Positions 5,745-40,713 of a DNA stretch of 64,000 nt are shown here, piece after piece. Position 1 is the stretch's first letter. Every line of letters starts with the position of its first letter. The stretch lies in the IMG/VR virus record IMGVR_UViG_3300033512_000271, one strand, 5' to 3'. The stretch comes from an uncultured virus (IMG/VR IMGVR_UViG_3300033512_000271) (lineage: Duplodnaviria > Heunggongvirae > Uroviricota > Caudoviricetes). The notes under the pieces were generated by a model. That model was not told where the DNA came from. It ran no database searches and saw only the letters and a list, made by a program, of their open reading frames with translations. The position numbers and the translations under genes are program-made.

Positions 5745-5769
5745 TTAAATCACAACAGTGAGGTATGGC

Positions 5770-10009: not shown

Positions 10010-10038
10010 TTGTTGTCGTCCTAGGTTTGTTGTATAAT
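10010..10038 (+). promoter_or_regulatory. sigma70-like promoter
   Basis: TTGTTG-17 bp-TATAAT in an AT-rich intergenic region. Confidence 0.5.
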
Positions 10039-10073
10039 AGTGCCAATTACTCAGCTTTCCGTAATACTAATAA

Positions 10074-10101
10074 ACCACCCAGACGTCAAGTTCTGGGTGG
10101 T
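10074..10101 (+). promoter_or_regulatory. leader hairpin upstream of the helicase
   Basis: 10-bp stem ACCACCCAGA/TCTGGGTGGT. Confidence 0.6.
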
Positions 10102-10116
10102 CGAGAGATTTATAAT

Positions 10117-19700: not shown

Positions 19701-20155
19701 GATATGTGTCTTCCGATATCAAGAAGATCATTCAGTTTATCAAAAATTCAGGTGGGACACTCGCAGGACTTAGTGCGGAGTTTCGTGATGAAGACGACAC
19801 GACCGGGATCAACAGTGCCTTAGAGAAGATAGAAAAAATATTTAAAACTGGGTTTGAGATTGACCAGAGTGTGTTGATAGCCAACACAGTAGCAGCACAA
19901 CATTGTGTGTCCCAGACCATTAGTCACGACACGTATATGCCAAGAGGTTCTACTGGTGATGATGTGTGGGAAAACATAATGACGTGCCACAGGGAAGGTG
20001 TCAACACCATGTATTACGTCTACACACAAGGGGCTGGAGATTTACACGAAAGTGCACGTGACCTGTCCACCATTCATGACATAACAGAAGGTGAAGATGT
20101 AGAAGAAGTGAAGCAGTGCTTAATCGACGATCCCTCTTGCGAGGCTTGTCAATAA
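16766..20155 (+). CDS. nrdA: ribonucleotide reductase class Ia alpha subunit
   Basis: SCFL, SNLCTEI, CVLSNIN, PTASSS, MYY and C-terminal CEACQ. Confidence 0.95.
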   Translation: MEEQSNNARTILLAAVNSAIIEIRSIMEIVKDTHALRLRRQQGLPRSTFINTLLEQRGEFMPYGKPSSEDLVDYAYRQYVPFNHRCVEAYTTRGIRLSRAFKEATKHAQGTSFKDLRALSHDVNALAEHQPEMTFLASLLLMSVVGAEVSKNRESLPKIGSVYHADLFDYSDTDISDSIVQLLSNSPTIDGQPLSSIDFHVAENFHNGANKILLRKVLLPTFFHACLRSGLTYEDVVGEFQQRTDLSRFINSLFNYVVATQAVCVLYTDDRFLAGFGNVRPPHSGFALNFIYQSAKSMEAVVLHSARNPYPSSAGELKIKVLCETHGEYIGRMAKGVEYFSKCGANAHLRNGGDLPNGLAPMYLSHVFAKHIGSGDPNPEGFVGKCIEKNELANGGRICNTLVWLIGGMYVMPSTPMTYATGLFKPKYDSTGTKPIGKTPISSSVSCFLTSVSDSSEGIGGMMDSSCKYSSGGGGMSHYMGGIRAGGSPISKGGFSPTVIEYAHPLHAVGPYVNQGSRRATSILISLPIHHLDVKHLMEIHKPRASKSSLFSIYSSVVISDGFMECVKRGGKWLLLSPSFYDRERTYEFRNTPEDELMHIKDVLCGMHNKYGFDIHNYVKTHNLFTPEYYDARHNDKYRALIELADEHEDVFLAITGAHGSFALVNAVELMQSIAASMMQFSKPWLVFGDNFNRSYPLVFSIPSSNLCTEIKTPFFSSENKFEGLEGRQLDATCVLSNINMEGMGDVVDGVEYMHLDLLAYTAMVCTDLLNAVTFGNKYPAKDNLITAFGLRPIGIGTFGMQELMWKMGLGFSDIQSLEKKLKLRFVINAAAISRSLALNVEAARQNIPNFEDVFKINDVDGVCSRRGTTAFKGATYTTLAQHPESSMTYEIDKALVNLEAEITLGDCKRFMNRWVKGALGRTLNSVLTSCQPTASSSKVAGVTADLPVKFYFPAIDTVSSRAGVRVEFYIIEALREAGYVSSDIKKIIQFIKNSGGTLAGLSAEFRDEDDTTGINSALEKIEKIFKTGFEIDQSVLIANTVAAQHCVSQTISHDTYMPRGSTGDDVWENIMTCHREGVNTMYYVYTQGAGDLHESARDLSTIHDITEGEDVEEVKQCLIDDPSCEACQ

Positions 20156-20160
20156 TCAAC

Positions 20161-20183
20161 AGGGGGACGATCTCCCCCTTTTT
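20161..20183 (+). terminator. intrinsic terminator after nrdA
   Basis: AGGGGGA/TCCCCCT stem followed by a T run. Confidence 0.7.
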
Positions 20184-20197
20184 CAATAGGATGGAAT

Positions 20198-21136
20198 ATG
20201 CAAACTGTAAAATTTAAGGCGTCTGAACATGTCCCCATGCCTGGGTATAAGTGGGCTATTGCAATTCTTTCTGCGTTCACCATAGGTTGTATGGTGGTCG
20301 ATTCGATGGTTGGTGCAATTTATGTCAATCTGAGTATCGAGTGGAATACGAGTCTGATGGCACCATTTCGGCTAAGTATGCTGCTATTTGCGTCTGTGGC
20401 GATATATTTAGTCAACCGTTATATCGTCATGTTTAAGACAACATATGCACATCCATTTTTGGTGATGTGTGCAGTGAAGAGTGCGTTCAATACCACTGAC
20501 TACGCAGTTTATCTGAACAAGTTTATCTATGGAGTCACCCAGAAAGGAGATAGAGTGGATAGCGGAGTGGTTGTATCAACACCACAGAATGGGGTGGTGT
20601 TGTGCGACAGTGTGGTAGACCTTTACCTGAAAGAACATTGTTCAAAAAGTCGTGGGAAGGGTGTCAGAGAAGACATCAACCAGAAATTGAATGGCATCAA
20701 CTACTTAATGGCGGTTGTTGGATTGCCACTTGCTATGACCATTCTCTCTTTATGTGGGATGTTGATCTATGCGGCGGTTGGAGAAAATGGTAGCAACTAC
20801 GCCATTGTGGTGGTAATTGCTCTATTTTTAATGACTTGGTATCTGAGCTTGGATTTAAGAACCGTACAATGGCTGTCTGTGCTATTTGCGTTTAAAAATC
20901 GATACGACCACTTTATTGAAGAGGCGTTCGACGGGTTGGCTGTTGCCAAAATGGTGCAGAATGCGAAAGATGCAGAAAGTCTCGCTGCTGTCAACTCCAT
21001 TGTACTCAAGCAATACAGATATGTTGTAGACCTGAAATACAGATTCCTCAGTGACATATTATGGATTGTGGCACTGGTGTTTGTGGGCGGCATCTTGCCT
21101 TATGTGGCAGCGGCAGTAGCAGTGGCGATGGGGTGA
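20198..21136 (+). CDS. multi-pass membrane protein
   Basis: About five hydrophobic segments in 312 aa. Confidence 0.7.
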   Translation: MQTVKFKASEHVPMPGYKWAIAILSAFTIGCMVVDSMVGAIYVNLSIEWNTSLMAPFRLSMLLFASVAIYLVNRYIVMFKTTYAHPFLVMCAVKSAFNTTDYAVYLNKFIYGVTQKGDRVDSGVVVSTPQNGVVLCDSVVDLYLKEHCSKSRGKGVREDINQKLNGINYLMAVVGLPLAMTILSLCGMLIYAAVGENGSNYAIVVVIALFLMTWYLSLDLRTVQWLSVLFAFKNRYDHFIEEAFDGLAVAKMVQNAKDAESLAAVNSIVLKQYRYVVDLKYRFLSDILWIVALVFVGGILPYVAAAVAVAMG

Positions 21137-21429
21137 TGATATCATCGATCTACGCAAGCTCCGGTAAATATTTGAAAGTGTCAAGAGCCTATCGAAACTT
21201 GTTGACAGCACTACTTGAAGAACGTTTGGAAGGGAACGAATCACCATTGGAGAAGTTCTCAAAAAACATTTGTGTAGTGCTGCATTCATGTGACCTGGAC
21301 GCTGGGTGGGCTGAAGTGACGTTTAGCGTAAGGGAAAACGTAGATAGGAGTGGCAGACGATATAAAATAATCCCGATCAATCATGACTATTATAGGACGT
21401 GTGTGAAATGGAACCGGAAGAAAAGATAA
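21136..21429 (+). CDS. hypothetical protein
   Basis: TGATG coupling to the upstream gene. Confidence 0.55.
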   Translation: MISSIYASSGKYLKVSRAYRNLLTALLEERLEGNESPLEKFSKNICVVLHSCDLDAGWAEVTFSVRENVDRSGRRYKIIPINHDYYRTCVKWNRKKR

Positions 21430-22310
21430 CGCTTGGTGAGACCAACCTCAAATTGAGGATTTATAGATTAAAGTTTGGATCGTCACCCGCACAGATTAGG
21501 TTGTACGTCTTCTCGATAGTCAGCAATGACCAGAGCCATCTAAACGAAGTGTCAGCACATTTTGTCACGGCTTTAGCATACTCGATAGACTATATGAGAA
21601 AAATACATGGGGTGCGGAGGGACTATGGGGTGGATATTGGTGACATTGTGTTGGACGGCTATCACGAAGTGCCCATCCCTTTTTCACGTGAAGTAAGGGG
21701 TTCTCACGAAGAGTCTGTAGAGTGCCAAATGGGTTGTTACAAGAAGTACACATCAATACTAATTAGTATGCTACAACCAGATGTCCCAGGGTTTTTGATG
21801 GTGGATTATTTTGAAAGCAACGAGTTGTGGGGAAAGTGTAGACTGATAGGGGCTATGCTGAGAAGATTCACACAACCAAATTTCAGTGTCCTGACCTTTG
21901 CAACAGCCCCATTGAAAGGAGTGTCATCTAACTTAGAGGAGATGTCGAAGGCTGTGTTGACCAGGTTTTTACATCCTCCTCCAGAGTTAGAAAGTTGGGA
22001 ATATGTGTCAAAAGTTGGGAAATATGCATGGCTAGGAAAGTTTAGCAATCCTATATTCTACCTATTCTTCTTCATGTTGGTGTATATACCTCTTGATCTA
22101 ATTCGGGTGTTCAGGATTATGGCTGCATTGAAAAGCGAGCCGCCAGACTATCCATCGTTGTTAGATAGACATTCGTTTTTGCGGGAGGTTGTAAAGGATA
22201 AATGTGTGTTTTTGTGGAAGGGTATCCACAGTAACGTAGTCCCTATTAAATCATCAGATAAAAAAAGGAATCATGACGATGCTGACTTATTATTTAGTCA
22301 ATGGCAGTGA
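21408..22310 (+). CDS. hypothetical protein with a C-terminal hydrophobic helix; weak GNAT-like resemblance
   Basis: AGGA SD; IFYLFFFMLVYIPL is a transmembrane-like segment. Confidence 0.6.
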   Translation: MEPEEKITLGETNLKLRIYRLKFGSSPAQIRLYVFSIVSNDQSHLNEVSAHFVTALAYSIDYMRKIHGVRRDYGVDIGDIVLDGYHEVPIPFSREVRGSHEESVECQMGCYKKYTSILISMLQPDVPGFLMVDYFESNELWGKCRLIGAMLRRFTQPNFSVLTFATAPLKGVSSNLEEMSKAVLTRFLHPPPELESWEYVSKVGKYAWLGKFSNPIFYLFFFMLVYIPLDLIRVFRIMAALKSEPPDYPSLLDRHSFLREVVKDKCVFLWKGIHSNVVPIKSSDKKRNHDDADLLFSQWQ

Positions 22311-24756
22311 TGGCAGTTCGGCGGTTGGGGCGTTTAAGACTTTTTTTGGCGTGAAGAATGTGGGTGATGTGTTCCCCAAAAGTTCTGGAAGTGTGAAATT
22401 CAACACTGATTTTCAGATAGAGCGTTTACGAAGACTCATTCTGTTGGTAAATGAGATGTACAAAAACGGACGCCCATTCAACATCTCATTACACAACCCT
22501 CTGCGCAGCGGGATGGATGAGATGTACCAATTGAAGGGTAGTTTTAAAAATCTCTACACTGAACTTCAAAGCAATCCAAACGTAACCCATAGGTTGGATG
22601 TGCTGGCTGAGGAGTTTTTTAAGCCGCTCTTAAATGGTGGCAAGCGGAGTGGAAAGGTGGTAGAACCATGCCATACTGGTAACTCGTTTGTATTAAACCA
22701 CATCTCCAATGTGCTTACAGAAGCACTCGCAGAGGGATACATGTCCTCGGACGTATATGCGTCTTCGGATATTGTGCAAAAGGTCGTTCTCGAAATCAAG
22801 TTGGCGATTGACGCATGCCACGAGGTGATCTGGTATAAACACGCTGTCGACTCATTGTTAGATGTGGCGCAAAAACTCAAGATGTGTTTGAGTGCAAAAG
22901 CATATGAGACCAAGCATGAAATGACAGATGAAGAGACTAGACTGGCGTATGGGCGGATAAATACTACAACCAAGTTTGAGAATCTTGCCACTGGATGTGA
23001 AATTGTACGACATGCTATTAAAACACCCGGCATATTGACAGATGATGAGCTTGGGGTGTTGTTGGGTCTGTACTCGTTTTCTAGCAAGGGTGGGCAGTGG
23101 CGTTCACACGAGTTGATAATGCTAGAATCACTGGCTTCTAAGTTGAAAGATATTTTTGCTCTGTACGGCAGTAATGTTCTAGCCGATCCGTTTAAACACA
23201 TTCGCAACGTCGTTGACACTTTTCTCCCGAATCGCCTGTCAGGGCATAAGGAAAACATACTTCTGGGGGTCAGAAGTGTAGAATTGATGTATGGGTATAC
23301 CCAGTGCACGCCAGTTTCACTAGAGGAGAAAAAGGCTATAGAAGATTACAACGCCTCCTCTCACAAAGATGGGGGTGTGAGATGGGGGAATAAAACTTTC
23401 ATGCCTGTGACAGAAAGAGTCGTGTCGTACATGGGATACCACACGCTTGCAGACATCATTGCACAGAGACCTCAGTCTTCAGAACGTAGATTTGTACTAA
23501 ATGGTCTGACGTCCAAGTACCCATGTGAGTGCTGGGAAGGTAGTCTACAACAGTTTCTCAGAATGGCTGGGAATGCTGGAGAGAAGGTTGTGCCAAATGT
23601 AATTCAGTGTACAGAGAACAAGGATGGCAGTCTAACACCCTTATCTGGACATCATCTTATTGAGCTTGTGCGTGGTGTTTGCGATGGTGGGGCGGATGAT
23701 AATATGACGTCTCCTGGAGCTGGAGGGACAAGCAGATATGTCGATGTGTTTGGAAGTGCATTGGAGAGTTGCTGCCCAATGCACACAAAAATATCTCGGT
23801 GGAATATTGGCAGACAACTCACAGCAATTGTCGGGGAAGTTGTAAAAGAGGGCGCACAGAAGATACGACACACCAACATAATCAAACGTGTGCACCTCTC
23901 TCAAATGTTGGAACGCTCATCAATTCTTGATCTAATTGTGCCAGTAATCGCCACGAAAGTTCCTCAATCAGGCGATGTGAATTTGGTTCAATTCAACAAG
24001 ACAGGCGATGAGGTGACATCATACAACGACATAGATACCACAGACATGTATAGCAAGTATCTGAAATACATCAGGGGAAGTTATGATGGAGGTCAATTAA
24101 TGTTGGAGATGTTGGGTTTCACATCGTCGCTTACTGGTTTGGGTGCTGCGGACACAACTATGAGAGCAAGATTGAAGTCGAGATTTAACGAGTGGCTTGC
24201 CAAAGTCATGGGGAAGTTTGCCAAGGTGTACGAGGATCAAGAGATTCTGCGTATAGACGTGATCAAATCCATTCTGGCGGTTAAAGAGGCTGTCAAGAGA
24301 TTCTCAGTACAGGCGAATCTTTCGGACGACAACGCCGAGATCGTGTACAAGAAACTATTAGTACCTCCACAGGTACGCTATAGTATAGAATCACCAATCA
24401 GACTCATGTCTGCTTCAAGTTGCATTCCACCTCCGTCTAATAATATTGTGGGGGTGGATATATTGACAGTGTACGACTATAAATTAATATCCCTAGTAGT
24501 TGCTATACTGCTCCAACATTTAGAGTTTAACCCAAGCTCTGACACACACAACGAAGAAGACACTGCACGGGAAGTGAACGAGGCATTGGATCGTTTGGGT
24601 GTAGTGCAGGCGATAGTGGACAATATGTCTCCAGTTTATACGTTTGGCGGCACAAAAGGTGGCAAAGGTGGTAAGCTAAGACTGAAGCAGACCCCCATAG
24701 TGACCGTCGACTCATCTGACACAATTTCGTACTTGAGCCACATATTCGATATCTAA
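22273..24756 (+). CDS. large hypothetical protein with a probable degenerate DUF262-like domain
   Basis: PQSSERRFVL, PLSGHHLIELV and VQFNKTGDEVT occur in DUF262 order. Confidence 0.6.
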   Translation: MTMLTYYLVNGSDGSSAVGAFKTFFGVKNVGDVFPKSSGSVKFNTDFQIERLRRLILLVNEMYKNGRPFNISLHNPLRSGMDEMYQLKGSFKNLYTELQSNPNVTHRLDVLAEEFFKPLLNGGKRSGKVVEPCHTGNSFVLNHISNVLTEALAEGYMSSDVYASSDIVQKVVLEIKLAIDACHEVIWYKHAVDSLLDVAQKLKMCLSAKAYETKHEMTDEETRLAYGRINTTTKFENLATGCEIVRHAIKTPGILTDDELGVLLGLYSFSSKGGQWRSHELIMLESLASKLKDIFALYGSNVLADPFKHIRNVVDTFLPNRLSGHKENILLGVRSVELMYGYTQCTPVSLEEKKAIEDYNASSHKDGGVRWGNKTFMPVTERVVSYMGYHTLADIIAQRPQSSERRFVLNGLTSKYPCECWEGSLQQFLRMAGNAGEKVVPNVIQCTENKDGSLTPLSGHHLIELVRGVCDGGADDNMTSPGAGGTSRYVDVFGSALESCCPMHTKISRWNIGRQLTAIVGEVVKEGAQKIRHTNIIKRVHLSQMLERSSILDLIVPVIATKVPQSGDVNLVQFNKTGDEVTSYNDIDTTDMYSKYLKYIRGSYDGGQLMLEMLGFTSSLTGLGAADTTMRARLKSRFNEWLAKVMGKFAKVYEDQEILRIDVIKSILAVKEAVKRFSVQANLSDDNAEIVYKKLLVPPQVRYSIESPIRLMSASSCIPPPSNNIVGVDILTVYDYKLISLVVAILLQHLEFNPSSDTHNEEDTAREVNEALDRLGVVQAIVDNMSPVYTFGGTKGGKGGKLRLKQTPIVTVDSSDTISYLSHIFDI

Positions 24757-27194: not shown

Positions 27195-28775
27195 GTGAAC
27201 AGTGCCACCCTAACTAAAGCAGTGGTGGGTAGGTTGTTAAAATCTCCCACATTTTTCAATGTCTATGGACCCCAATTAAGGAAATTGGGTAAATTTTCAG
27301 ACAGTGGGATGCAAAAACTGCTTACAGTACTGGACACATACAGAAGGAACGGGGCAACAATCACATCCGAGAACTTTCGTTCAGTCCTGCCGGCAGACAT
27401 TTTGAGAGTCATAACTGGAATTGGGGTAAGCGATGACACTACGCTAGATGATGAAACATTGGTATCGCTGTACCTTCGATCCCAGATGAGTGCTGTGCTA
27501 AATAGATTGACAATTGATGTTCAGGTGAACAACGACTACTTTGGAAAGAAGTGGACAACCCTGATCGATGCCTTTTCTACTGCATCAAAAATATCAGAAA
27601 AAACTCTGACGAGCGACATGTATGGTGGGGAGGCGTATCTTACTCAGTCGGTACAACAAGTTTATAACGAAGCTGCGGCTATGGCTGCCGAGAGAGCTTC
27701 TGGGAGAGGATACACATCAGGCATTCAGGTGTTGGATGAGTGCAAGATAATACCACGAAGACGTGATATATTCTTAGTGATTGGTCACATGAACTCTGGT
27801 AAGTCGTATTTCCTGGATAACATTGCAGTCAAAAATGCAGAGAGGGGTCATGTGGTGATCGTGTATACCCTAGAGATGACGCACGTAGATCGACTGATGC
27901 GCATTGAACAGATGTTGACCACATCAGTTCAAGACTCTGTAGATTTGGTGTATGGGGTTGGTCAACATGAAATCGTCAGTCGGAAGACTAACTGGAGTCT
28001 GCCTAGACATGCATTAAGAAGACGGGCAGTTGAAGGTTATAGTGGGTTCATAAAACTGAAAGGTGCTGTAGAGGGGAAAAGTTTCCTTGGAGTAACTGGC
28101 AGCATGGTGAATGATGATGGTACTGTCAACCAAGATGTTCGTAAACTTTCTGAATTATCTCGAATCCCGTTTCTGGAAAGCGGGGGCGATGTATTTGTAA
28201 AGGCTGGAACAATCGGGGAAACTACAATAGCGGATGTCGCAGAGACTATTCAAAATGTCAGGGCGACAGGCAGAGAAGTGAGCATGGTGATTCTCGACTA
28301 CTCAGCATTAATGAGTTCGGGAAATCGTGACCTTGATCAGAATTACAACGATAGGCTCTCTAAAGTTAGTCTTCAGTTTAAAGACTTAGTGCAGAAGTTC
28401 AATATTGCTGGAGTTAATTGCCATCAAGCGAATGATGAGGCAACTTCTGTCACCAAAAAAGCAGGGTTTGGTGGACAACAGCAGCAAAAGCAGGCGTCTG
28501 TGTACAGTGTGTGTGGCATTAAGTTGCTACGACCGATTATCGCCACCAATCATATCTTCGGGGCAAAGTCATTGGCAAATGATGCTGCTTTAGCGATTGG
28601 ATTAAACACGACCAATCCACCAGGGGACGGGCTTGTTATTAATGAATTGCGGTCAAGAAATAGTGGAAGAAATCAGTCAATGTGGTTTCTGAAACTAGGG
28701 CTTCCTGCAAAATACGTGATCTATGCCAACACAATATACCCGTATGAGGAGAAAGAGGATGGTGATGGAAAGTAG
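27195..28775 (+). CDS. dnaB: DnaB-like replicative (SF4) helicase
   Basis: GHMNSGKS, YTLEM, ILDY, HQAN and RSRN. Confidence 0.88.
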   Translation: MNSATLTKAVVGRLLKSPTFFNVYGPQLRKLGKFSDSGMQKLLTVLDTYRRNGATITSENFRSVLPADILRVITGIGVSDDTTLDDETLVSLYLRSQMSAVLNRLTIDVQVNNDYFGKKWTTLIDAFSTASKISEKTLTSDMYGGEAYLTQSVQQVYNEAAAMAAERASGRGYTSGIQVLDECKIIPRRRDIFLVIGHMNSGKSYFLDNIAVKNAERGHVVIVYTLEMTHVDRLMRIEQMLTTSVQDSVDLVYGVGQHEIVSRKTNWSLPRHALRRRAVEGYSGFIKLKGAVEGKSFLGVTGSMVNDDGTVNQDVRKLSELSRIPFLESGGDVFVKAGTIGETTIADVAETIQNVRATGREVSMVILDYSALMSSGNRDLDQNYNDRLSKVSLQFKDLVQKFNIAGVNCHQANDEATSVTKKAGFGGQQQQKQASVYSVCGIKLLRPIIATNHIFGAKSLANDAALAIGLNTTNPPGDGLVINELRSRNSGRNQSMWFLKLGLPAKYVIYANTIYPYEEKEDGDGK

Positions 28776-29942: not shown

Positions 29943-31478
29943 ATGTCATACATCGACTTCATATCCGACCCTGACGCAGTGGACGAAATATTATCGATGG
30001 CTGAGTTTGAAATCAAACCAGATTCACGCAAACAATTAGAAGCCATCGCATATATAGTCTTCAATGCCATACGTGGCGAGTCGACACTACTCGGATTGGG
30101 AACAGGGGCTGGTAAAACGTTCATAGCTTTGACAGCGATGAAAATTTTACGGGGTATTGGTGTGATTGGAAAAAAAACCCTGTTCCTGTTGCCTAACACA
30201 AATGCGACCACAAACATAGTAAAAGAGGTTGTGAAGTTTTACCCAGAACTTAAAGTGTTCAATCTCCGACCTGCTCACGGCATGATGTGTTTTACTGAGG
30301 AGTATGACATTGTCGTGAGTACTTATGCAACGCTATTTCAGTCATCCTCGTTATTGAAGAGTGATGGAAAGGGGAGTGTAGGAGGAAATCTCCTGCTGTT
30401 GCGAGCAGCAGCAGACTACATCGTGGCGGATGAAGTGCACAATTGTGCTGGTCAGGATTCACAAAGATTCGTTGGGATCGACCAAGTTGTAAATGGGGTC
30501 AATCGTACCGACGAAAAGAAATTGATTCTAGCTATGTCTGGAACACTTGTGACAGCAGACAAGAGGTTGGACAACATCTGGGCACCGATGAAGCTGGTTG
30601 ATGGTGGGACTTCTCTGGGGCGGAGGTATATAGACTTTGTAGAGGACACCCGACTGTTTAAGCAGACAGTAATACAGATCGGGAAACCCGGAAAAGGGTG
30701 GCGACCGACCACAAAAAAATACACAGCTAAGAGCGGGACTAAAGCCTATGTTGAAAGAGCTATTAGCGAGTACTTTATCAACTACGATCTTGAAAAAAAG
30801 GAGCGAAGCGGGGGAATGTCGATTCGTAAAATCAACATCGACATGTCATTCAAGGTACAGTATAGGCATATGGAAAGAAGGGAGGTATACACATCACAGT
30901 CTTCTATGGAGTCTAAATCAATAGTTTTACAGCAGTTGATGCAACTAAATTCTGGCTTCATGTATGTTAAAGAACATGGGGTGAATGCGAACAGCTTTTG
31001 TTACCGAGACAGTAATAAAGCTATCTACCTAGAAACCCATATCAGGGAATGGTTATCAGAGACGGAGGGGAAAGTACTTATTTTCCATAACTTCGTTGAA
31101 TGTGGGAATCTAATCGACACGGCGTGCAGGAATGCTGGAGTTGAGGCATTGAGAATGGATTCGAGTATGGGGCAGCAGGAGAAACTGGAGATGCGAGAGG
31201 ATTTCGTGTCGTCTAACACCTGCAGAATATTAATCCTCCCATACAGAATTGGGGCTGAGTCTTTGAATTTCACAAAAACTGGCGAAGGGATAGTGGTGCA
31301 GGGGATCGTGTGCTTCGACGCAATATTTGAGGAGACATTATTTTTCCAGGCACTGGGTAGAGCAGATCGTCTTGGGCAGAAGAGAAAGACGTGGTGTAAG
31401 TTTTTAAGCGGTGGTAACGAGGAGAACAAATGGTTTGATGAAGTAATCTCAAACCTATCGTATTCCCTAGAAACGTAG
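29943..31478 (+). CDS. SNF2-like SF2 helicase
   Basis: GTGAGKT, DEVH, MSGT, VLIF, GAESLN and QALGRADRLGQ. Confidence 0.88.
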   Translation: MSYIDFISDPDAVDEILSMAEFEIKPDSRKQLEAIAYIVFNAIRGESTLLGLGTGAGKTFIALTAMKILRGIGVIGKKTLFLLPNTNATTNIVKEVVKFYPELKVFNLRPAHGMMCFTEEYDIVVSTYATLFQSSSLLKSDGKGSVGGNLLLLRAAADYIVADEVHNCAGQDSQRFVGIDQVVNGVNRTDEKKLILAMSGTLVTADKRLDNIWAPMKLVDGGTSLGRRYIDFVEDTRLFKQTVIQIGKPGKGWRPTTKKYTAKSGTKAYVERAISEYFINYDLEKKERSGGMSIRKINIDMSFKVQYRHMERREVYTSQSSMESKSIVLQQLMQLNSGFMYVKEHGVNANSFCYRDSNKAIYLETHIREWLSETEGKVLIFHNFVECGNLIDTACRNAGVEALRMDSSMGQQEKLEMREDFVSSNTCRILILPYRIGAESLNFTKTGEGIVVQGIVCFDAIFEETLFFQALGRADRLGQKRKTWCKFLSGGNEENKWFDEVISNLSYSLET

Positions 31479-31491
31479 ATTTGGTGTGCAA

Positions 31492-31623
31492 ATGAGTATT
31501 GAGTTATTGGCTGTGGAAGGGTCTTATCTGGGGACGGTGCTTGTAGCCACTCTCAGTGATGTGTTTCGTGCTGGATTTCCCCAAACTCACATTTTGGAAT
31601 TGAGACAGAAACCTAGAGGTTGA
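31492..31623 (+). CDS. possible 43-aa protein
   Basis: Short open frame filling the gap between the helicase and the polymerase. Confidence 0.35.
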   Translation: MSIELLAVEGSYLGTVLVATLSDVFRAGFPQTHILELRQKPRG

Positions 31624-31625
31624 AT

Positions 31626-34600
31626 ATGCAATCGCAAGACGTTTTAATTAAGGCGTTGGACATTATGGGGGTAGATTATCGTGTCGATGCACAACCTCCA
31701 CAAAACATCCGTGTGGACTGTCCCTCTGAAACATGTAGGTATGAACACGGTAAGTACCACATGAACATCAAGTTCGGCGACAAAGGCAAGGTCTTAGACG
31801 GGACATACCATTGCTGGGCGTGCCATGCCAAGGGTAAAAAATTTCTAGCTGACATAGGTAAATTGTACAACGGGGTGGTCAGCGAGAGTGTAATAGCGAC
31901 AGTTCAGGAAGGCGTGGCAGCAGACGTAGTATCTTCTGAGAAGTTGGATGGATCATCTTTTGAGAATCTTGGAGATTTTAAATTGATGGCATCCTATAAG
32001 GATGTGTTCGGTTCGCATGGGGATCCGGATTACGCACGATACTTTGACGTGCTAGGGATAGCCAGAGATGTGGACGGGGTGTGGTATGTGGCAAAGAAGA
32101 TTTCTGGAGTAGGCTCTATAGTGATTGGAGTGTCCTCAAGATTTGCAATGTTTGGACACCATTTCATAGGTGAGGCTCTAAAGTATCGTAAGCGAGACAT
32201 CGTGTATGTCTCAGATTTGACAGAAGCCATCGAATACAATGTCAACAACTTCTTCACCTCAGATTCGTGCGCAGTTTACATAGACCCAACCAAGGATGCA
32301 GACGGAGTCTATCGAGTGCTTGGTGAACATGGGTTAAAGTTCAGACTGGGCGAGGGTGATGTCGAGGCATTGGCTGAAGTCAAACTTGAAGCATCGGTGC
32401 GGGATGATGCCCTCAAATTCGTGAAATCCCTGTTCCCGTTGGAGCCGCACACATACAACTCAGATGCACAGTTAGTAGAGGCATTACTTAGACCTATGGT
32501 GTTTGGGGTGTTAAACACTGACGACCTGTCAGAATATGTTGAGCTATTGACTAAGATGGAACCACTGCCAGATGTCCCACGTTCTATGTTTGTCATTGGA
32601 GACGTTGTGAACACGTCCATGTTTATCGGAAAAGAGGATTTTTCTGTAAATGTGTTTAATATTGATACAGAGACAGAGGTAACAAAGTCTCAGTGCAAAG
32701 ACGGCATTGTTGTGTCGTACTCAAAAGCCATGCTAGATCGTCTACTTTTGTCTCTTGAGATGATGTCTTGGGGGGACATGATTGTTGCTGTTGGCGAAGG
32801 GTGTGGGGTGCTGAACTCCGTAATCGATGAACCAATGATAGCAAACTACAATAGGAAAGAACGAAAACCATTATTTGCGACGTGCAACTGGTTGCACACA
32901 GTCCATGTGAAAGGGGTGATGTTCAAGGTGATGATTGTGCCAACAACGAAGGTAGTGTCGCCCTTCATTAATCCATCAGGGTCTGAAAACTATCTTACAA
33001 AATACACAAACACAGTATACACAGACCTCTTCCTGAAAGCGTTGAGACAGGCGTATGTTGTGTACACTAAGTTCTACACAAGATTGCACAAAATTGTCGA
33101 CACAACGATACTGAATGAGTTTAACATGCTGACTGGGGTCAAATGCTACTTTGAGGTAACAGATGAACTAATTGACAGGGTGTCGGACTTTTGTAGAGAC
33201 AGGGTGGTAGGTGTTGACATTGAAGCAACACACTTAAATCCGTACAGAGGCGCAGAGATAGGATATAAATTGATAAGTATAGCGGTAAGTGACGGGGTGG
33301 AGTCCATCTCTGTGTGGCTCGTAGATCAGGAGCTTACAGAAGATTTGCTGCTGGGAATTTTCATGAACAGTGGGAAGATGGTTTTCCATAACGCAGCATT
33401 CGATATACGAGTATTGATGTACTTGTATCCATCAATTAAGGATGTACTGCTGGAGTGTCCACATAAGTTGGAAGACACTGGCGGTATAGCGTTAGCGTTC
33501 AATCTCCACCCAGAGAACAACAGTAATGCTGCAACTCGCACTACGAGTTTGAACAAACTGACTAAAATGTTGTTTGGGCTATACATTAAAGATTCGTTCG
33601 CCCATGTTGATAGAGAAAAGATGTGGAAGTATCTGGACTCTGGGTATGTAGATAAATACGTTGTTTTGCTATATAACGGTGGTGACTCTAAGTGGACGGC
33701 GTTGGCGTTTAAGTTGATGCAGATGGCTGTCGGCGGGAAGAACATGCTCAATACCCCAGAGTACATTCATTATCGCAGACGGATGGAGATAGTAGTTGCG
33801 TGCTCTGTCATGTCCAACTATGGTATCCCAGTATCTGTGGACGGTATTATTAATAAAGGAAATGCGTTAAAACGTGAAGCCGTTCGCATAGAAAAATTCA
33901 TCGAAGAACACCCTTTAGTGTTAGCATTTCTTGAATCTCCAGAAGGGGAGAAGTGCGCTGGCGGGTTTAATACTGGGTCGTCAGTTGTCAGACACAGGTT
34001 TGCTGTGGAGTATTTAGGTCTTCAGGACCCAACTAAACAGGAGGTGAAGGCGCATGGAAACTCGAAGGCAGGGGTGTGGAAGTTTCACTGCGATAACAAT
34101 GGTGCGGACGATCCAATTCTAACGATGGCTTCTGAGGTGTTTGGGGCGATTGTAGAACTTGGTCAATGTCTGAGCCCACTTAGAACACTGATCCTACCTT
34201 TTAGAAATGTACTTGTTGATATATTCAAGGATGCCCCACACAGGCTGGCTGAGATCGAATTCTTTGATCCTGGGTATTTGGACGAGGTTAAGTTGGGGAA
34301 AGTTATAGGCTCGCAGAATGATGGGTTGGATTTCTTTTCAGAGGATGATTCGGCATACGATTATGAAAACGACGCATACGACGTTATTGGTGGTAAAATG
34401 GCTGACTTCTACCACATTACAACGTATGACAGAGCTTTGGGAGTCTTACGAATCCACACCTCATTTAAGGTGTTAGGAGCTACAGTGTCAGAGCGTATCG
34501 CTTCATCACCGAACGTTCAAAACATCTCACCAGAGATGCGTGAGATATTCGAGACTCCCAAGGGACAAGTGTATTGTGCATGTGATTGTGGTGGTGCAGA

Positions 34601-35363
34601 CGTCACCATAGCCGCAGCCCTGTACAACGACACACGGCTGCTGGACATGTTGTGGAATGATGGCGACGTTCACAGAGAAGCCACTATAATGTTACTAGAA
34701 TGTACTAAAGGAAGACCTGACGACGTAGAAGCAAGGTTCAGAGCTGAACATTCAGAAGTTGAGACACGTGAAGAAGTTATCCACAAGTTGCGCAAGAAGA
34801 TCAAAGGCAACGTTGTCTTTGCAACAATTTATGGCAGTCACCCTGAACAGATGCGAGCCACATTAGACCTGACCCCAGAGTCGTTCGCCGAATTCCTCCC
34901 ACTGAAAGCAAAGTTGTTAGGTGGGATTGAGGACGGACATGAGCGGATGTTGAACCAAGTTAAGACCCAAGGGTATTTTCTTGATCCATTCTCCCAAACT
35001 AAACTGCGTGGCGATTTTTCGAGAAACCAGTTTTTCAACATTCCAGTTCAGGGCGGGACTGCTAAATGGGCTAACTCGACACTACTCCCATTGATCAAGG
35101 CTGGAGTACAGTTGGTCAATATTATCCACGACGAGCCATTTGCGGTTGAAGTTGAAGAGAAGGCGGACAGTACAGTCAGATTTATGGCTAAGACATTGGT
35201 TACTAGCTTATTCAAGGATTACCCACATTTGGATGGAAGAATGCCTCTCAAAGCTGAGGGATTCATTTCTAATCGTTGGGATAATTTAAAACATGAAGTT
35301 TACGTGGTGGATTCATCTACGAACTATGGATACACGAGACGAAAGAAGGGTAAGAGGGCATAG
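31626..35363 (+). CDS. polA: family A DNA polymerase with 3'-5' exonuclease and N-terminal primase-type zinc finger plus degenerate TOPRIM/UDG-like domains
   Basis: Exo motifs DIEAT, HNAAFD and YNGGD; RIASSPNVQNI; motif A DCGGAD, motif B RKKIK..F...YG, motif C IHDE; N-terminal CP..C..H....CWAC. Confidence 0.92.
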   Translation: MQSQDVLIKALDIMGVDYRVDAQPPQNIRVDCPSETCRYEHGKYHMNIKFGDKGKVLDGTYHCWACHAKGKKFLADIGKLYNGVVSESVIATVQEGVAADVVSSEKLDGSSFENLGDFKLMASYKDVFGSHGDPDYARYFDVLGIARDVDGVWYVAKKISGVGSIVIGVSSRFAMFGHHFIGEALKYRKRDIVYVSDLTEAIEYNVNNFFTSDSCAVYIDPTKDADGVYRVLGEHGLKFRLGEGDVEALAEVKLEASVRDDALKFVKSLFPLEPHTYNSDAQLVEALLRPMVFGVLNTDDLSEYVELLTKMEPLPDVPRSMFVIGDVVNTSMFIGKEDFSVNVFNIDTETEVTKSQCKDGIVVSYSKAMLDRLLLSLEMMSWGDMIVAVGEGCGVLNSVIDEPMIANYNRKERKPLFATCNWLHTVHVKGVMFKVMIVPTTKVVSPFINPSGSENYLTKYTNTVYTDLFLKALRQAYVVYTKFYTRLHKIVDTTILNEFNMLTGVKCYFEVTDELIDRVSDFCRDRVVGVDIEATHLNPYRGAEIGYKLISIAVSDGVESISVWLVDQELTEDLLLGIFMNSGKMVFHNAAFDIRVLMYLYPSIKDVLLECPHKLEDTGGIALAFNLHPENNSNAATRTTSLNKLTKMLFGLYIKDSFAHVDREKMWKYLDSGYVDKYVVLLYNGGDSKWTALAFKLMQMAVGGKNMLNTPEYIHYRRRMEIVVACSVMSNYGIPVSVDGIINKGNALKREAVRIEKFIEEHPLVLAFLESPEGEKCAGGFNTGSSVVRHRFAVEYLGLQDPTKQEVKAHGNSKAGVWKFHCDNNGADDPILTMASEVFGAIVELGQCLSPLRTLILPFRNVLVDIFKDAPHRLAEIEFFDPGYLDEVKLGKVIGSQNDGLDFFSEDDSAYDYENDAYDVIGGKMADFYHITTYDRALGVLRIHTSFKVLGATVSERIASSPNVQNISPEMREIFETPKGQVYCACDCGGADVTIAAALYNDTRLLDMLWNDGDVHREATIMLLECTKGRPDDVEARFRAEHSEVETREEVIHKLRKKIKGNVVFATIYGSHPEQMRATLDLTPESFAEFLPLKAKLLGGIEDGHERMLNQVKTQGYFLDPFSQTKLRGDFSRNQFFNIPVQGGTAKWANSTLLPLIKAGVQLVNIIHDEPFAVEVEEKADSTVRFMAKTLVTSLFKDYPHLDGRMPLKAEGFISNRWDNLKHEVYVVDSSTNYGYTRRKKGKRA

Positions 35364-36165
35364 CGAGTTACGCCTATTCAACAACACCCATTTAGAGGTA
35401 GTGTCGATTGGGACGGAAACGGTGTCTATCCTAACCGTTCCAATCTCACTCCCATCTTATAGGATAGGAGGAAAACTTGTTAGAAAGACACGTGAACACT
35501 GGAAGCTATCACCCTATATGTACATCGAGGCGTACTGGGCAGATGGCATGTCGAAATGGATTCTCGATAATGGATATTTCCATCTGAAGAATTCGTATAA
35601 CGTTCACATGATTCCAAAAGAATTCACTGACTCGCCATTATTCACATATGACAAGGAGGATGATTTTTTATATGGTGATGTATTGAACGGAGAAGGGATG
35701 AGCGGTGTTACGAAGATGTCTGTCGTACTTGTATGTGGGATTGAGGTGAGATTCAATGGTAGGGTGTACGCACCTGTAGAATGTGAAATGGTTCCCAAAC
35801 TGTTTATGTTTCAATCCACATTGTACGACAGAAGAGTAAAAGTGATAACAGACAAGACGTATGAGTTCACTGGAGTGTCTATCGCAGACTCTATGGTGTC
35901 GATCCACAACCCCACAATAATAACAGCAATACCTGGCAACAGGGTGATTAGTATCGGAAACCTGGCATCTATCAGAGATACAGTAGGGATGGATGTGCAC
36001 AAGGTGTTCAGTAGGGAAGCCTCACAACCTCCACGAAGTGAGCTGTTATTCTATCGGATGTTACTGGGTTACGCAGTCAACGAGATGTATGATGTGAATT
36101 TGTATGAAAATCTTAATATTTTTAGTAAACAAGAAACCAAAATCGCAGTATCAACCATAAGTTAG
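35326..36165 (+). CDS. hypothetical protein
   Basis: Long ORF overlapping the polA end; start uncertain. Confidence 0.6.
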   Translation: MDTRDERRVRGHSELRLFNNTHLEVVSIGTETVSILTVPISLPSYRIGGKLVRKTREHWKLSPYMYIEAYWADGMSKWILDNGYFHLKNSYNVHMIPKEFTDSPLFTYDKEDDFLYGDVLNGEGMSGVTKMSVVLVCGIEVRFNGRVYAPVECEMVPKLFMFQSTLYDRRVKVITDKTYEFTGVSIADSMVSIHNPTIITAIPGNRVISIGNLASIRDTVGMDVHKVFSREASQPPRSELLFYRMLLGYAVNEMYDVNLYENLNIFSKQETKIAVSTIS

Positions 36166-36178
36166 ACAAGAGGAAATT

Positions 36179-38002
36179 GTGATGACAGACATTTTCGACA
36201 GTAGTGTTTCACTAGACGAAGTTAATATCGAAGCGATGTTTGATGTGGCTGGAAGCGTTATCACCGCTGTAAAAAGAGAAAGCGTCGAGCGTTGCTTACG
36301 CCCAGACATGGGTAACGGCGCAAAGATTGTGCAGTTAAGCCAATCTGAACTCCAATTGCTCTTCATTCCGGGCGGCATAGCGTACTACACTGCCCCAGGA
36401 ACAGTGACCCCACTGCTGACCCCATCTGGTGGAAAGATTTTACGTGAATCCAACTCTATCCAGAGTCATGTGCTTGTTGAGAATGTTTACGACGGCGGTT
36501 CTCGTTCCAGAGTCAATGTGGCTGGGGCTAACGCAACACGGGTAGATTTATCCATGAAGGGTGCTATCCAAGTAGCAGTGTATCACGGTGAAGTGTTCTC
36601 AGAGTACTCAGCCATTCAAGCTGCTTTGATGATGTCTCCCACATCTGTGGCATCAATGGTGGTGGCAAATGTATTGGGTGGTTGGAAAAAACGCTTTGTC
36701 CCAGTGCCGGGGTCAAATCCACCCAAAAATGAAATACACCCATTAGCCGATGGATTTAACACTTCCACAGACGTTGTTTGCTACGTCCTTAATGCAAATG
36801 CGGCGTTCAATGCAAATAGTGTGACACTGACTGGGTATCCTTTGGCTGGGGCACGAGTGGTCGATGATGAAGTGCTCACTGATACGTTGATTAATGTATT
36901 TCGTGTTGCGGATTTTAGATTCATGCCAGCATACAATGCGGCTGCACAAGCACAGTCCCAACACGGGAGTAAGGTGTCAGCTTTTTGTAACTTACAATCG
37001 TTATATCTGACTAATGTGTCGGTTGGGTCGTTGGCTTCCAAAAAGTATGAGCATGACGGGTCAATTGACCCAGCCACAGTGTCTGTGTCATTTAAACAAT
37101 TGCAAATGCAGACAGCGTCATTTACGGCGATTTCAGGAAGCACAAATACTATGACTGGCATGGAGTTGATGAAGCGTATCGCAGCCAATGCCGCAAAGTA
37201 CCCATTGCCAGAAAACATTCAGTATCTGACAGAGGTAGAAGATTTCAGTCGGGCAATGCATTTGCTGTCCATGCAAGAGTCGTCATACCCAGGTGTTATT
37301 GATCGGTTCGTGGACGGGTTGGCACGAGAGGTGGATTCTCGTGAAGCAAGAGTGTACGAAGCTGGTCTGGCTGCCGGGCTGTCTCGTAATGATATTAAAG
37401 CGGTGTTGGAAAAGCCAATCTTTTTAAACAGACGCGATTTGGTCAAAGCCAAGTCTGACCGCAAATCCAATGCCGGTGAAAGTGTTAGCTCTGGGACAGC
37501 CCAGTTTGACAAGGCATCCATCGAAAAAATGAATGCGACGATGACGCCTGCCGCTGTGGTTTCCCCAGTTGTTGCGCCAACCACTGTTCCTCAAAAGACC
37601 GTAGAATCAGGAGGATTGTCTCCAAAGGACTTAAAAAATGCACTCACATCATTAAAAGTTGGCGGTGATAAGCTGGATAGCTCTTGGGGCGCATTTAAGG
37701 ATGAGTTGGAGGGCATGGAAGCTGCATACTTGGGCGACAATCAGGCACTGATCAAGCAGTATGGAAACCAATATTCAATTGGGTACGTCAAGCTCATACA
37801 GACTGTTACAAGAGAAGGTCATTCCGACTTAGTTGCAACAGCAGAAGCTCCGAAGCGTGGGAGCATGTTGACTGTGGGGGGTGTGACTCTGTTCATCCCA
37901 TCTGCTATGACAGGCGTAGAAGACGTTGTGAGCCTAAAAGACTCAATTGAAGACTTGTTGGAAGACGGCGGGGTTCTCGTAGAAGGCGGAGAAATCTTAT
38001 GA
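36179..38002 (+). CDS. hypothetical protein, possibly a gp32-like ssDNA-binding protein
   Basis: GAGGA SD; lies between pol and recA; A/P/T-rich linker and acidic C-terminus. The function call is weak. Confidence 0.55.
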   Translation: MMTDIFDSSVSLDEVNIEAMFDVAGSVITAVKRESVERCLRPDMGNGAKIVQLSQSELQLLFIPGGIAYYTAPGTVTPLLTPSGGKILRESNSIQSHVLVENVYDGGSRSRVNVAGANATRVDLSMKGAIQVAVYHGEVFSEYSAIQAALMMSPTSVASMVVANVLGGWKKRFVPVPGSNPPKNEIHPLADGFNTSTDVVCYVLNANAAFNANSVTLTGYPLAGARVVDDEVLTDTLINVFRVADFRFMPAYNAAAQAQSQHGSKVSAFCNLQSLYLTNVSVGSLASKKYEHDGSIDPATVSVSFKQLQMQTASFTAISGSTNTMTGMELMKRIAANAAKYPLPENIQYLTEVEDFSRAMHLLSMQESSYPGVIDRFVDGLAREVDSREARVYEAGLAAGLSRNDIKAVLEKPIFLNRRDLVKAKSDRKSNAGESVSSGTAQFDKASIEKMNATMTPAAVVSPVVAPTTVPQKTVESGGLSPKDLKNALTSLKVGGDKLDSSWGAFKDELEGMEAAYLGDNQALIKQYGNQYSIGYVKLIQTVTREGHSDLVATAEAPKRGSMLTVGGVTLFIPSAMTGVEDVVSLKDSIEDLLEDGGVLVEGGEIL

Positions 38003-39351: not shown

Positions 39352-40713
39352 ATGGAAACACAGTCATTGAAATCAGATATGCGGTTCGAGATAGTCGAGA
39401 CTATGGGTATGCCAACAGACTCGATGATCGCTTTTGCGGCACGAGTGTCTCATGGCGGAAGCTCTGCTGTCAGAACAGACTATAATTTGGTGAAGGCGTT
39501 ACGGGATAGCGATCACTTCTCCCCTTTCTCGCACATCAATTTTTCACTATTCATTAATTGCAGGTCAGAATGGGAACGCAACTCTCCAGTGTTGGTTGCG
39601 GTAAAAAAGTATCTGTTGGGAGGGCTGCATACTAAATATGGTGGACATGAGTTGTACGAGTCACCATTTTCACTGATGAGGAATGTTGGTGGCGGGCATG
39701 TTGGGCTGATGCGGCTATCGTTAATCCATCTTTTGAAGCTGTTAGAACATACTAGTTTTGGTAGTATGTACACGACAAGTGGTGGAGGAATTGTACCTCA
39801 TGGGTATTGTGATTTCCCACAAACAGCACCACACGAGGCATGCGACATACATGATGAGAGGTTTGCGGTATGGTACATCCCAAGACTCATTGCCAGAAAA
39901 ATTCTTGATGGCAGCGATGTTGGGTATGCGTTTATTGACAAGAACTCTGCCATCCGTGAGGAGCTTAATGGGTATGTCAAAGAGTTAGACTCATCCACAT
40001 TCGGCTATGATGAGAGCATGTCGATCAGATTAAACACATGCAACAAGGCGTTCTTAGGAGGACATCATTCCAGCAAGTCTGAGAAAATGGTAATCTGGGC
40101 ATCAGATGTGAAAACACCAAATGTGTTGATGCCCACAGACTACAACACGCTGGGCTTCATCCAAACAACCGCTTTAGATCAAATGCAGACTGTGACGTTT
40201 AAGGTGGATAATATGCCACTTTACATCGCGAATCAGTTTTTGAGACATCGGAGAGGCGTGTGTGTAAGTCAAATGTCAGGTCGATACTCAAGTTTTGGCA
40301 CGTTTGTAGGGGACGATGAGGGAGTAGGTTTGTTGAAAACTTGGCTAGACTTAGATACGTGGAGGGTTACTGCTCGTAAGGCTGACGCTCGTGCAGCCCC
40401 ACTAGTGGATTGGTCGGAAGAAAATGCTGCAGTGGCACGTCAGGGCGTTATTGATGGGATGAATCATGTGTTGATGAACGCAATATTGTTGGAAAGTCGG
40501 TGCGGTGTAGCCAAGGAATGTGTGAGAGAAGTGCTTCCTTTGGGGGCGCATACCAAGATGGTGATAACTATGACTATGGAAGCTGTCAAGCGTGTTGTTG
40601 GGCTGCGGGGCGACGATATGGCGCAAAAGGAATGGGGAACATTTGTTGAGTTTTTAACAGGAGTGTTGATTAAACATGATGAGATGTACTATGGTTCAGA
40701 GGGGAGCGAATAA
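39352..40713 (+). CDS. thyX: flavin-dependent thymidylate synthase with a large insertion
   Basis: AARVS, HFSPF, QFLRHRRGVCVSQMSGRY, AKECVREVLP and LR...AQKEW. Confidence 0.9.
   Translation: METQSLKSDMRFEIVETMGMPTDSMIAFAARVSHGGSSAVRTDYNLVKALRDSDHFSPFSHINFSLFINCRSEWERNSPVLVAVKKYLLGGLHTKYGGHELYESPFSLMRNVGGGHVGLMRLSLIHLLKLLEHTSFGSMYTTSGGGIVPHGYCDFPQTAPHEACDIHDERFAVWYIPRLIARKILDGSDVGYAFIDKNSAIREELNGYVKELDSSTFGYDESMSIRLNTCNKAFLGGHHSSKSEKMVIWASDVKTPNVLMPTDYNTLGFIQTTALDQMQTVTFKVDNMPLYIANQFLRHRRGVCVSQMSGRYSSFGTFVGDDEGVGLLKTWLDLDTWRVTARKADARAAPLVDWSEENAAVARQGVIDGMNHVLMNAILLESRCGVAKECVREVLPLGAHTKMVITMTMEAVKRVVGLRGDDMAQKEWGTFVEFLTGVLIKHDEMYYGSEGSE

Follow-up and report, generated by a model that had tools for sequence, protein, structure and literature searches.

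A phage family A DNA polymerase with aspartate at the steric gate and an N-terminal primase-type zinc ribbon

The Glu steric gate is treated as near-universal in family A DNA polymerases (PolAs), which raises the question of how a natural PolA with another residue at this position arose and what the change does. We address this question for a single gene at positions 31,626–35,363 of a 64,000-nucleotide (64-kb) stretch of DNA from an uncultured Caudoviricetes virus (IMG/VR record IMGVR_UViG_3300033512_000271), hereafter the window. The original prediction, made from the letters alone, saw in its product a PolA with Asp at the gate, fused to a CHC2-like zinc finger, and proposed that the enzyme may lay down its own primers or tolerate ribonucleotides. 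Our preferred reading, to which we give somewhat better than an even chance, is that the gene encodes the replicative, proofreading polymerase of a rare uncultured phage lineage; that a DnaG-type primase gene was most likely fused to the 5′ end of a neighboring gene for a uracil-DNA glycosylase (UDG)–exonuclease–PolA protein; that the primase zinc-binding domain was kept under selection; and that the nucleotide-binding loop was remodeled in the same lineage.

Motif A of the window protein reads DCGGADVT, as the translation had first suggested. The phmmer alignment against PDB sequences, in which the query segment CDCGGADVTIAA is paired with the Taq polymerase segment LDYSQIELRVLA, places Asp992 at the position of Taq Glu615, the counterpart of Klenow Glu710, and identifies Asp987 as the catalytic residue. 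Ala991-Asp992 thus replace Taq Ile614-Glu615, the canonical Ile-Glu pair, and the position of Taq Tyr611 is taken by Cys, Leu or Ser in the polymerase family. This family comprises nine distinct full-length relatives, all 1245–1297 amino acids (aa) long, with 33–81% identity and no shorter or split forms of the fusion open reading frame (ORF) among them. In the nine-sequence alignment, motif A occurs as DCGGADVT, DLGGADIT, DCGAADVS and DSGQADVR, with both Asp residues (catalytic and gate), Gly at the third position and Ala before the gate invariant. Asp occupies the gate in all nine members, always together with the zinc-ribbon fusion, as against 114 Glu and one Gln in 115 other PolAs (counted from 123 proteins: these 115 and eight family rows, in which the window protein stands twice, as P0001 and P0002). 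The Gln, the sole other non-Glu residue, belongs to P0052, an 883-aa bacterial-type Pol I with motif A DYSQIQLR.

DNA near-identical to positions 33,600–35,400 of the window is found in microbial mat metagenome runs from several studies (X1–X4). Contigs of X2 and X3, from two further studies, are identical to the window over motif A, and since the Asp is also invariant in the nine relatives, the gate codon is genuine and not an error. A variant of about 95% identity, from a run labeled as a wastewater metagenome (X5, an RNA-Seq library marked as probably DNA), differs in motif A by two synonymous changes only and carries 18 synonymous versus six non-synonymous codon changes over 601 nucleotides. 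An artifact, be it a faulty read or assembly, a chimeric ORF or a pseudogene, is ruled out by the identical contigs, by the synonymous-only difference in motif A and by nine relatives with the same single ORF and motif; its probability is negligible.

The remainder of the polymerase has the expected features. Pfam DNA_pol_A (PF00476) matches the window protein with 52 bits against a cut-off of 34.3 (E 7.1e-14; residues 944–1221 in the TTG numbering explained below) and is matched in all nine members, with a best E of 1.6e-22. DNA_pol_A_exo1 scores 23.5 bits in the window protein, just below its cut-off of 23.6, and is matched in all nine members (best E 7.7e-9), while phrog_17 (DNA polymerase) of PHROGs covers residues 515–1226 at E 1.8e-37. 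The key residues of Exo I–III, the HDE of motif C, and R1056, K1060, F1065, Y1069 and the Gly of motif B are invariant across the nine relatives, in agreement with the earlier view that these motifs are intact, the one nuance being the K-x4-F spacing of motif B, one residue longer than the canonical K-x3-F. Within the ORF no helicase family was matched by Pfam in the window protein or the nine members. The sequence marks the ORF as that of a functional family A DNA polymerase that proofreads and is subject to purifying selection. The start of the ORF is most likely the ATG at 31,626, as originally given: an alternative TTG lies two codons upstream at 31,620, with the same end at 35,363, and the ATG is preferred because AGAGG stands 6 nucleotides upstream of it and the database copy P0002 has 1245 aa. 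Residues are numbered from the ATG; TTG-based numbers are higher by two.

The family is rare in public data. Its members were gathered from a word-indexed search, from metagenome contigs and from an exhaustive search of 1.84 billion representatives with a profile of the N-terminal 520 residues. The word-indexed search separates the family (E ≤ 1e-95) from the next PolA (E 3.9e-12), and the exhaustive search returned only five family representatives and one weakly matching 130-aa zinc-ribbon protein (P0126). The IMG/VR viral contigs gave no relative with a three-sequence alignment and, with the nine-sequence alignment, only the locus L018, which encodes a UDG-PolA described below. GTDB genome contigs contained no relative, and therefore offered no prophage copy and no clue to the host. 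The ESM Atlas gave no usable match for the N-terminal region, and residues 1–320 had no tblastn match at E ≤ 10 in 50,697 phage records.

We find the first ~85 residues of the protein to be a Cys4 zinc ribbon that is related, by fold and by profile, to the zinc-binding domains of primases. An AlphaFold2 model of the N-terminal region, built on the nine sequences and of middling quality (mean predicted local distance difference test score, pLDDT, 64.6), falls into three parts. Residues 1–83 superimpose in VIA-align on Twinkle (7t8c/7t8b; Z 8.3/8.1, root-mean-square deviation 2.2, 64 aa), on T4 gp61 in the primosome (8dvf_H; Z 7.4) and on the Bacillus DnaG zinc-binding domain (1d0q; Z 5.9), and the three best Foldseek chains are all Twinkle (E 2.5e-4 to 6.8e-4). 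For this model-based comparison, we regard it as decisive that several independent primase domains come out on top for the same 80 residues. A profile of the family N-terminus matches the L018 primase in hhalign (Prob 71.5–76.5%, pairwise E 2–4e-5), with the match confined to the zinc-binding domain (columns 9–85 versus 10–78). Pfam Zn_ribbon_DnaG was not matched in the family members, no relevant Pfam family was matched by N-terminal pieces at E ≤ 10 or by the N-terminal 510 residues of the nine members at E ≤ 5, and the N-terminal profile found nothing meaningful among PDB sequences. The metal site is of the Cys4 and not the CHC2 type, because C32, C37, C63 and C66 (C-x4-C...C-x2-C) are invariant in the nine sequences and the His preceding C63 is variable, being Lys in one relative; of the CHC2-like finger first described, the primase-type metal site therefore stands and the CHC2 designation does not. 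The stand-alone P0126 carries a zinc ribbon (…CPAC…HCWVCGFKGRS…) that resembles the family finger (E 7e-4 in the exhaustive search) and weakly matches Pfam Zn_ribbon_DnaG (E 0.057).

Much of the proposed history comes from the nearest kin, the UDG–exonuclease–PolA enzymes of certain phages and the UDG-PolA group of Czernecki et al. 2023 (PMC10201439). By tblastn, six of the 50,697 phage records match the polymerase, the best being Edwardsiella phage vB_EpM_ZHS (ZHS) and the Mardecavirus Vibrio phage VP06 with its kin. The polymerases of ZHS, VP06 and L018 are UDG–exonuclease–PolA fusions of 818–884 aa with a Pfam-detectable UDG domain. These three share with the window family the K-x4-F spacing of motif B and the Gly at the third position of motif A, both of which are lacking in the canonical Pol I rows, and the C-terminal tail of VP06 is of the same SS.NYG-like kind (SSTQYGHVR versus SSTNYGYTRR). 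They differ from it in motif A, where all three have D[YF]GQIE[FA]R with the Glu gate kept and the window family has Ala-Asp; in position 4 of motif B, which is Phe in the UDG-PolAs and Tyr (Tyr1069) in the window family; and in the N-terminus, which is ~320 residues longer in the window family and has no detectable UDG signature. In a tree of 29 rows (eight of the nine family members, ZHS, VP06, P0102 and 18 other PolAs, with P0007 omitted because it nearly duplicates P0006), the family is recovered as a clade with support of 100 on a stem of 2.04 changes per site and adjoins ZHS and VP06 with an SH-aLRT value of 94. This sister placement is tentative because of the long branches. With midpoint rooting, the earliest-branching member is P0125, whose motif A, DSGQADVR, is the nearest to the D[YF]GQIE pattern.

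Traces of the same ancestry may persist upstream of the exonuclease. Alignment between the two groups covers the exonuclease together with the second half of the UDG-like domain: domain 3 plus exonuclease against UDG plus exonuclease of VP06, ZHS and L018 reaches Prob 99.1% (E 5.7e-19) in hhalign, and at the default threshold this alignment extends back to residue ~380 and takes in the second half of the UDG domain. For residues 318–485, UdgX scores highest by fold (Z 6.1/6.0). Against a UDG identity weigh the comparison of domain 3 alone with UDG alone (hhalign Prob 0.35%) and the lack of a Pfam UDG match in the family. Domain 3 is probably what remains of the UDG-like domain found in UDG-PolA enzymes.

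Gene order points in the same direction. UDG-PolA phages and the window share a replication module that runs from DnaB and an SF2 (superfamily 2) helicase, through other genes, to the polymerase, ThyX and a RecA-like gene. In VP06, DnaB and the SNF2 helicase are followed by a hypothetical gene and a DnaG-type primase of 377 aa; several more genes, one of them an annotated clamp, precede UDG-PolA, after which come ThyX, an annotated clamp loader and RecA. In L018, DnaB, the SNF2 helicase and a 334-aa primase (Pfam DNAG_N, E 4.4e-5) come first, several ORFs intervene, and UDG-PolA is then followed by an AAA+ protein with a DNA polymerase III delta-type domain. TOPRIM strings of the forms EGxxD and D-[EA]-x are clear in both primases. 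In the window and in its 33% relative L004, the DnaB-like and SF2 helicase genes are instead followed directly by the fused polymerase ORF, with ThyX and a RecA/UvsX-like gene later on; neither a separate DnaG-type primase gene nor the clamp and clamp-loader genes of VP06-type phages are recognized in the window. Because the separate primase gene is absent here and the polymerase carries some 320 extra residues, the size of such a primase, that begin with a primase-related zinc ribbon, the simplest reading of these sequences is that the neighboring primase gene was fused to the UDG-PolA gene. Together with the syntenic relatives that keep a separate primase gene, the fusion would offer a rather clear snapshot of how primase and polymerase genes join. 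A gene of ZHS annotated as "DNA primase" (ZHS_74; 20,111–21,676 of its record, L020) has GTGKT and DESH strings, resembles SNF2/SF2 helicases and gave no alignment with the primases of L018 and VP06; its annotation may be wrong.

If a primase was fused here, does it still act as one? One alternative holds that the protein is a true primase-polymerase, in which domain 2 would be an active, very diverged RNA polymerase domain (RPD)/TOPRIM or other fold that primes with the help of the zinc ribbon, and the polymerase would extend the primer in cis. The missing separate primase, the conserved zinc-binding domain and the retention of domain 2 in all nine members would fit this proposal, as would a weak fold hint, limited to the T7 gp4 primase (1nui/6n9x, Z 4.1, 113–114 residues aligned); PolA-primase fusions also have precedents in PfPREX and AEP-PolA, the latter with an archaeo-eukaryotic primase (AEP) (PMC10201439, in the parts drawn on here). 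Domain 2 itself tells against it. No Pfam or PHROG family matches domain 2 in any member, and neither Toprim nor DNAG_N, nor any other primase family, is matched in the nine members at E ≤ 5. Against the catalytic portion of the two sister primases, from L018 and VP06, hhalign gives a Prob of 0.05%, and the EGxxD and DxD motifs that are clear in those primases have no conserved counterpart in residues 115–316 of the nine-sequence alignment, nor is there a conserved Glu. When modeled alone, the domain was too poor to use (pLDDT 55, best Z 3.8). Conservation is lower here than anywhere else in the protein, with only seven invariant columns out of 202, and it is unusual for catalytic cores to evolve faster than all of their surroundings. 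We therefore consider an active primase in domain 2 quite unlikely; the segment is possibly a decayed RPD/TOPRIM domain. Self-priming, as originally proposed, is accordingly unsupported, because the TOPRIM core is unrecognizable, its acidic motifs are not conserved and the segment is the fastest-evolving of the protein, which leaves only the zinc-binding domain of a primase detectable.

A search for a primase elsewhere bore out the earlier statement that no stand-alone DnaG or AEP primase is recognizable in the window. No DnaG or AEP primase was matched in 43 window ORFs of at least 100 aa (PHROGs and Pfam, E ≤ 0.001), in 27 window ORFs without a clear family (Pfam, E ≤ 1), or in 19 window ORFs, the N-terminal piece and nine ORFs of L004 (PHROGs, E ≤ 0.5), and in these profile searches no AEP catalytic domain appeared among the Pfam and PHROG matches of the polymerase or of the scanned ORFs. 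A profile of the two sister-clade primases, run on six-frame window ORFs of at least 60 aa, found only residues 30–69 of the polymerase itself (E 0.0076). A string scan of 28 window ORFs yielded no TOPRIM EGxxD, and two AEP-like D.D, one D.D..G and one C..C, all short enough to occur by chance. These results hold for the 64-kb window, and about 25 kb of the phage genome may lie outside it, given that the longest contig of the database copy P0002 has 89,220 bases. Four large window ORFs have no significant Pfam or PHROG family, at 5,758–8,475 (905 aa), 10,027–13,314 (1095 aa, with a faint DEAD/ResIII match at its N-terminus only), 22,273–24,756 (827 aa) and 751–2,442 (563 aa), and any of them could hide a replication function, priming included.

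A different form of self-priming has been considered as well: primer synthesis would have moved from the lost TOPRIM center to the polymerase active site, with the ribbon holding the template and the initiating nucleotide and the Ala-Asp pocket admitting the starting ribonucleotides, by analogy with de novo initiation by the related single-subunit RNA polymerases. It is suggested by the unrecognizable primase core, by the ribbon and the gate change, which are both invariant and arose on the same branch, and by the lack of another recognizable primase in 64 kb, and we hold it to be highly improbable.

In the fusion reading that we prefer, the zinc-binding domain would probably grip the single-stranded template or a short primer and hand it to the polymerase active site in cis. 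The primers would be made elsewhere, since the primase catalytic core is unrecognizable and fast-evolving, either by DnaG of the host, brought in by the DnaB-like helicase of the phage, or by a phage protein not recognized as a primase. Which protein primes replication in these phages is a question that the locus thereby raises. Motif A would have changed in the same lineage from D[YF]GQIE.R to D.G.AD..., and the smaller Ala-Asp pair beneath the sugar should make the pocket wider around the 2′ position.

How far the gate change alters sugar selection is the second half of the question. Taq E615 tolerates Asp, and I614 and E615 contact the incoming deoxynucleoside triphosphate (dNTP) (PMC4215692, PMC7863901), and substitutions at the gate and its neighbor recur in variants that take ribonucleoside triphosphates (rNTPs) or 2′-modified nucleoside triphosphates (PMC9738464, PMC6158600), as far as the sections of these papers used here go. 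By analogy with such engineered variants, tolerance of ribonucleotides or modified nucleotides is a plausible inference: the smaller Ala-Asp pair probably makes for a wider sugar pocket, and we put a measurable loss of discrimination against ribonucleotides or 2′-modified nucleotides at about even odds. In Taq, the E615D substitution is reported to raise rNTP incorporation (Patel and Loeb 2000b).

Two other accounts of the gate deserve attention. In the first, the change is compensated drift, such that the remodeled loop, the Tyr at position 4 of motif B and the longer O-helix rebuild a normal gate with ordinary sugar selection. The pairing of Tyr at this position with Asp here, versus Phe with Glu in the sister UDG-PolAs, suggests co-variation of an interacting pair; the long stem (2.04 changes per site) is also in keeping with drift, and the proofreading replicase of a double-stranded DNA phage would be expected to exclude rNTPs. 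However, Asp is one methylene shorter than Glu and the neighboring Ile is reduced to Ala as well, and because both Ala and Asp are invariant down to 33% identity, a selected property is favored over drift; we judge this account unlikely, though worth keeping in view. In the second, the Ala-Asp gate is an adaptation to a modified nucleotide pool, with a modified base or sugar in the phage DNA. The UDG-PolA phages SPO1, SP-10 and SP-15 carry modified uracil in place of thymine (PMC10201439, in the part cited), ZHS is annotated with 7-deazaguanine pathway genes and, next to its polymerase, with a nucleoside 2-deoxyribosyltransferase, and the window encodes an extended ThyX, a weak MazG-like match and a GmrSD_N/DUF262 protein. 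Yet the base modifications known so far occupy the major groove, well away from the 2′ pocket; Glu is retained by the sister UDG-PolAs; and no modification enzyme was identified in the window. With its circumstantial support, this account appears improbable.

Several points weigh against our preferred reading. On the gate, extrapolation from single Taq mutants is weak because the whole motif A loop is remodeled, and compensation could restore normal sugar selection. On the N-terminus, a fold Z of ~8 is near the level that models lacking a clear match often attain, the profile match of the zinc ribbon is modest (Prob 71–76%, pairwise E about 1e-5), and domain 2 has a similar length in all nine members, where an active but very diverged primase retains a small chance. 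On the history, the sister placement depends on long branches, and its support value is unstarred. Finally, no primase of any kind is recognizable in 64 kb, and a finger that serves only as a hand-off module thus leaves the source of the primers unexplained.

A comparison with known systems shows where the enzyme stands apart. The zinc-binding domains of DnaG, T7 gp4, T4 gp61 and Twinkle share their fold with residues 1–83 (Z 8.3 to 5.9), with four invariant zinc ligands here; the window domain differs from them in its C-x4-C...C-x2-C site in place of CHC2, in being fused to a polymerase rather than to RPD/TOPRIM plus helicase, and in having no recognizable catalytic domain after it. PfPREX (the apicoplast TOPRIM primase–helicase–exonuclease–PolA) and bacterial AEP-PolA likewise have primase-derived sequence N-terminal to PolA. 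These two, however, have recognizable catalytic primase domains, PREX also a helicase, and belong to the Hot Spring 1 cluster according to the relevant part of PMC10201439, whereas the window protein has a zinc ribbon only, no fused helicase (the DnaB-like and SF2 helicases being separate upstream genes) and a UDG-PolA descent. The 2023 PolA reclassification (Czernecki et al., PMC10201439) lists, in the portion considered here, N-terminal fusions with 5′–3′ exonuclease, SF2 helicase, AEP primase-polymerase, TOPRIM primase-helicase (PREX) and family 4 UDG, and treats the gate as the conserved position A2; an architecture of primase zinc ribbon, unassigned domain, UDG remnant, exonuclease and polymerase is absent from the N-terminal fusions in that portion.

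As for the gate, engineered Taq and Klentaq variants have the same two positions, I614 and E615, made smaller (PMC9738464, PMC4215692, PMC6158600). In the excerpts of these papers relied on here, they are laboratory mutants, mostly E615G, that incorporated only short RNA stretches; the window enzyme, by contrast, is a proofreading replicase in which the Ala-Asp pair occurs naturally and is invariant, and in which the remainder of motif A has changed too. Mycobacterium smegmatis DinB2 is also a natural polymerase clade with a non-canonical gate, but it is a Y-family repair enzyme with Leu in place of the aromatic gate residue and with demonstrated rNTP use (PMC4176160, in the part available), while the window enzyme is read from its gene. 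Among the titles that literature searches on steric gates of family A and phage polymerases returned, none concerns a natural Asp-gate PolA, a statement whose scope stops short of the motif logos of the 19 clusters in PMC10201439. Glu is present in 114 of the 115 other PolAs sampled. A natural clade of proofreading replicases with a fixed Ala-Asp pair amounts to a ready-made experiment on the importance of the gate in vivo, and could serve as a scaffold from which to develop enzymes that take ribo- or 2′-modified nucleotides.

The five parts of the fusion protein (zinc-binding domain, unassigned domain, UDG-like domain, 3′–5′ exonuclease and family A polymerase), their motifs and the upstream helicase genes are collected in Table 1.

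Table 1. Positions in the window of the polymerase gene, its parts and motifs, and the two upstream helicase genes; mean identity and invariant columns were computed per part among five divergent members.
Feature	Positions	Strand	Mean identity	Invariant columns	Details
Whole gene, five-part fusion protein	31626..35363	+			1245 aa from ATG; Pfam, PHROGs, nine full-length relatives
Primase-type zinc-binding domain, residues 1–85	31626..31880	+	39%	15/85	C32 31719–31721; C37 31734–31736; C63 31812–31814; C66 31821–31823
Domain 2, residues ~115–316, function unassigned	31968..32573	+	20%	7/202	Weak fold hints only; lowest conservation in the protein
Domain 3, residues ~317–500, alpha/beta	32574..33125	+			hhalign match jointly with exonuclease; UdgX fold match
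3′–5′ proofreading exonuclease	33162..33779	+	48%	51/206	Exo I DIE 33216–33224; Exo II HNAAFD 33387–33404; Exo III YNGGD 33672–33686
Polymerase palm and fingers	34407..35363	+	42%	55/297	Motifs TGR, A, B, 6, C; Pfam DNA_pol_A
Motif A DCGGADVT	34584..34607	+			Catalytic Asp987; gate codon GAC (Asp992) at 34599–34601
Motif B (O-helix) RKKIKGNVVFATIYG	34791..34835	+			R..K..F..YG; K-x4-F spacing
Motif C HDE (H1168-D1169-E1170)	35127..35135	+			Invariant in 9/9
SF2 helicase gene, directly upstream of the polymerase	29943..31478	+			phrog_62 E 1.8e-40; Pfam ResIII, DEAD, Helicase_C
DnaB-like replicative helicase gene	27195..28775	+			phrog_19 E 3.1e-23; Pfam DnaB_C E 1.1e-9

Downstream of the polymerase lie two ORFs, at 35,293–36,165 (290 aa) and 36,179–38,002 (607 aa), the first of which overlaps the 3′ end of the polymerase gene by 71 nucleotides; both are conserved in the relatives L002 and L004. 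As the annotated clamp and clamp-loader genes of the sister phages lie beside the polymerase and none are recognized here, these two products could be processivity partners. Long N-terminal extensions without a family match occur in two other enzymes of the window: ~270 aa in ThyX (39,352–40,713; Pfam Thy1 at residues 278–428) and ~400 aa in the large subunit of ribonucleotide reductase (16,766–20,155; 1129 aa). An ORF at 13,311–15,968 (885 aa) carries a GmrSD_N (DUF262) domain, named after type IV restriction enzymes, and sits in a region of phage replication and nucleotide metabolism.

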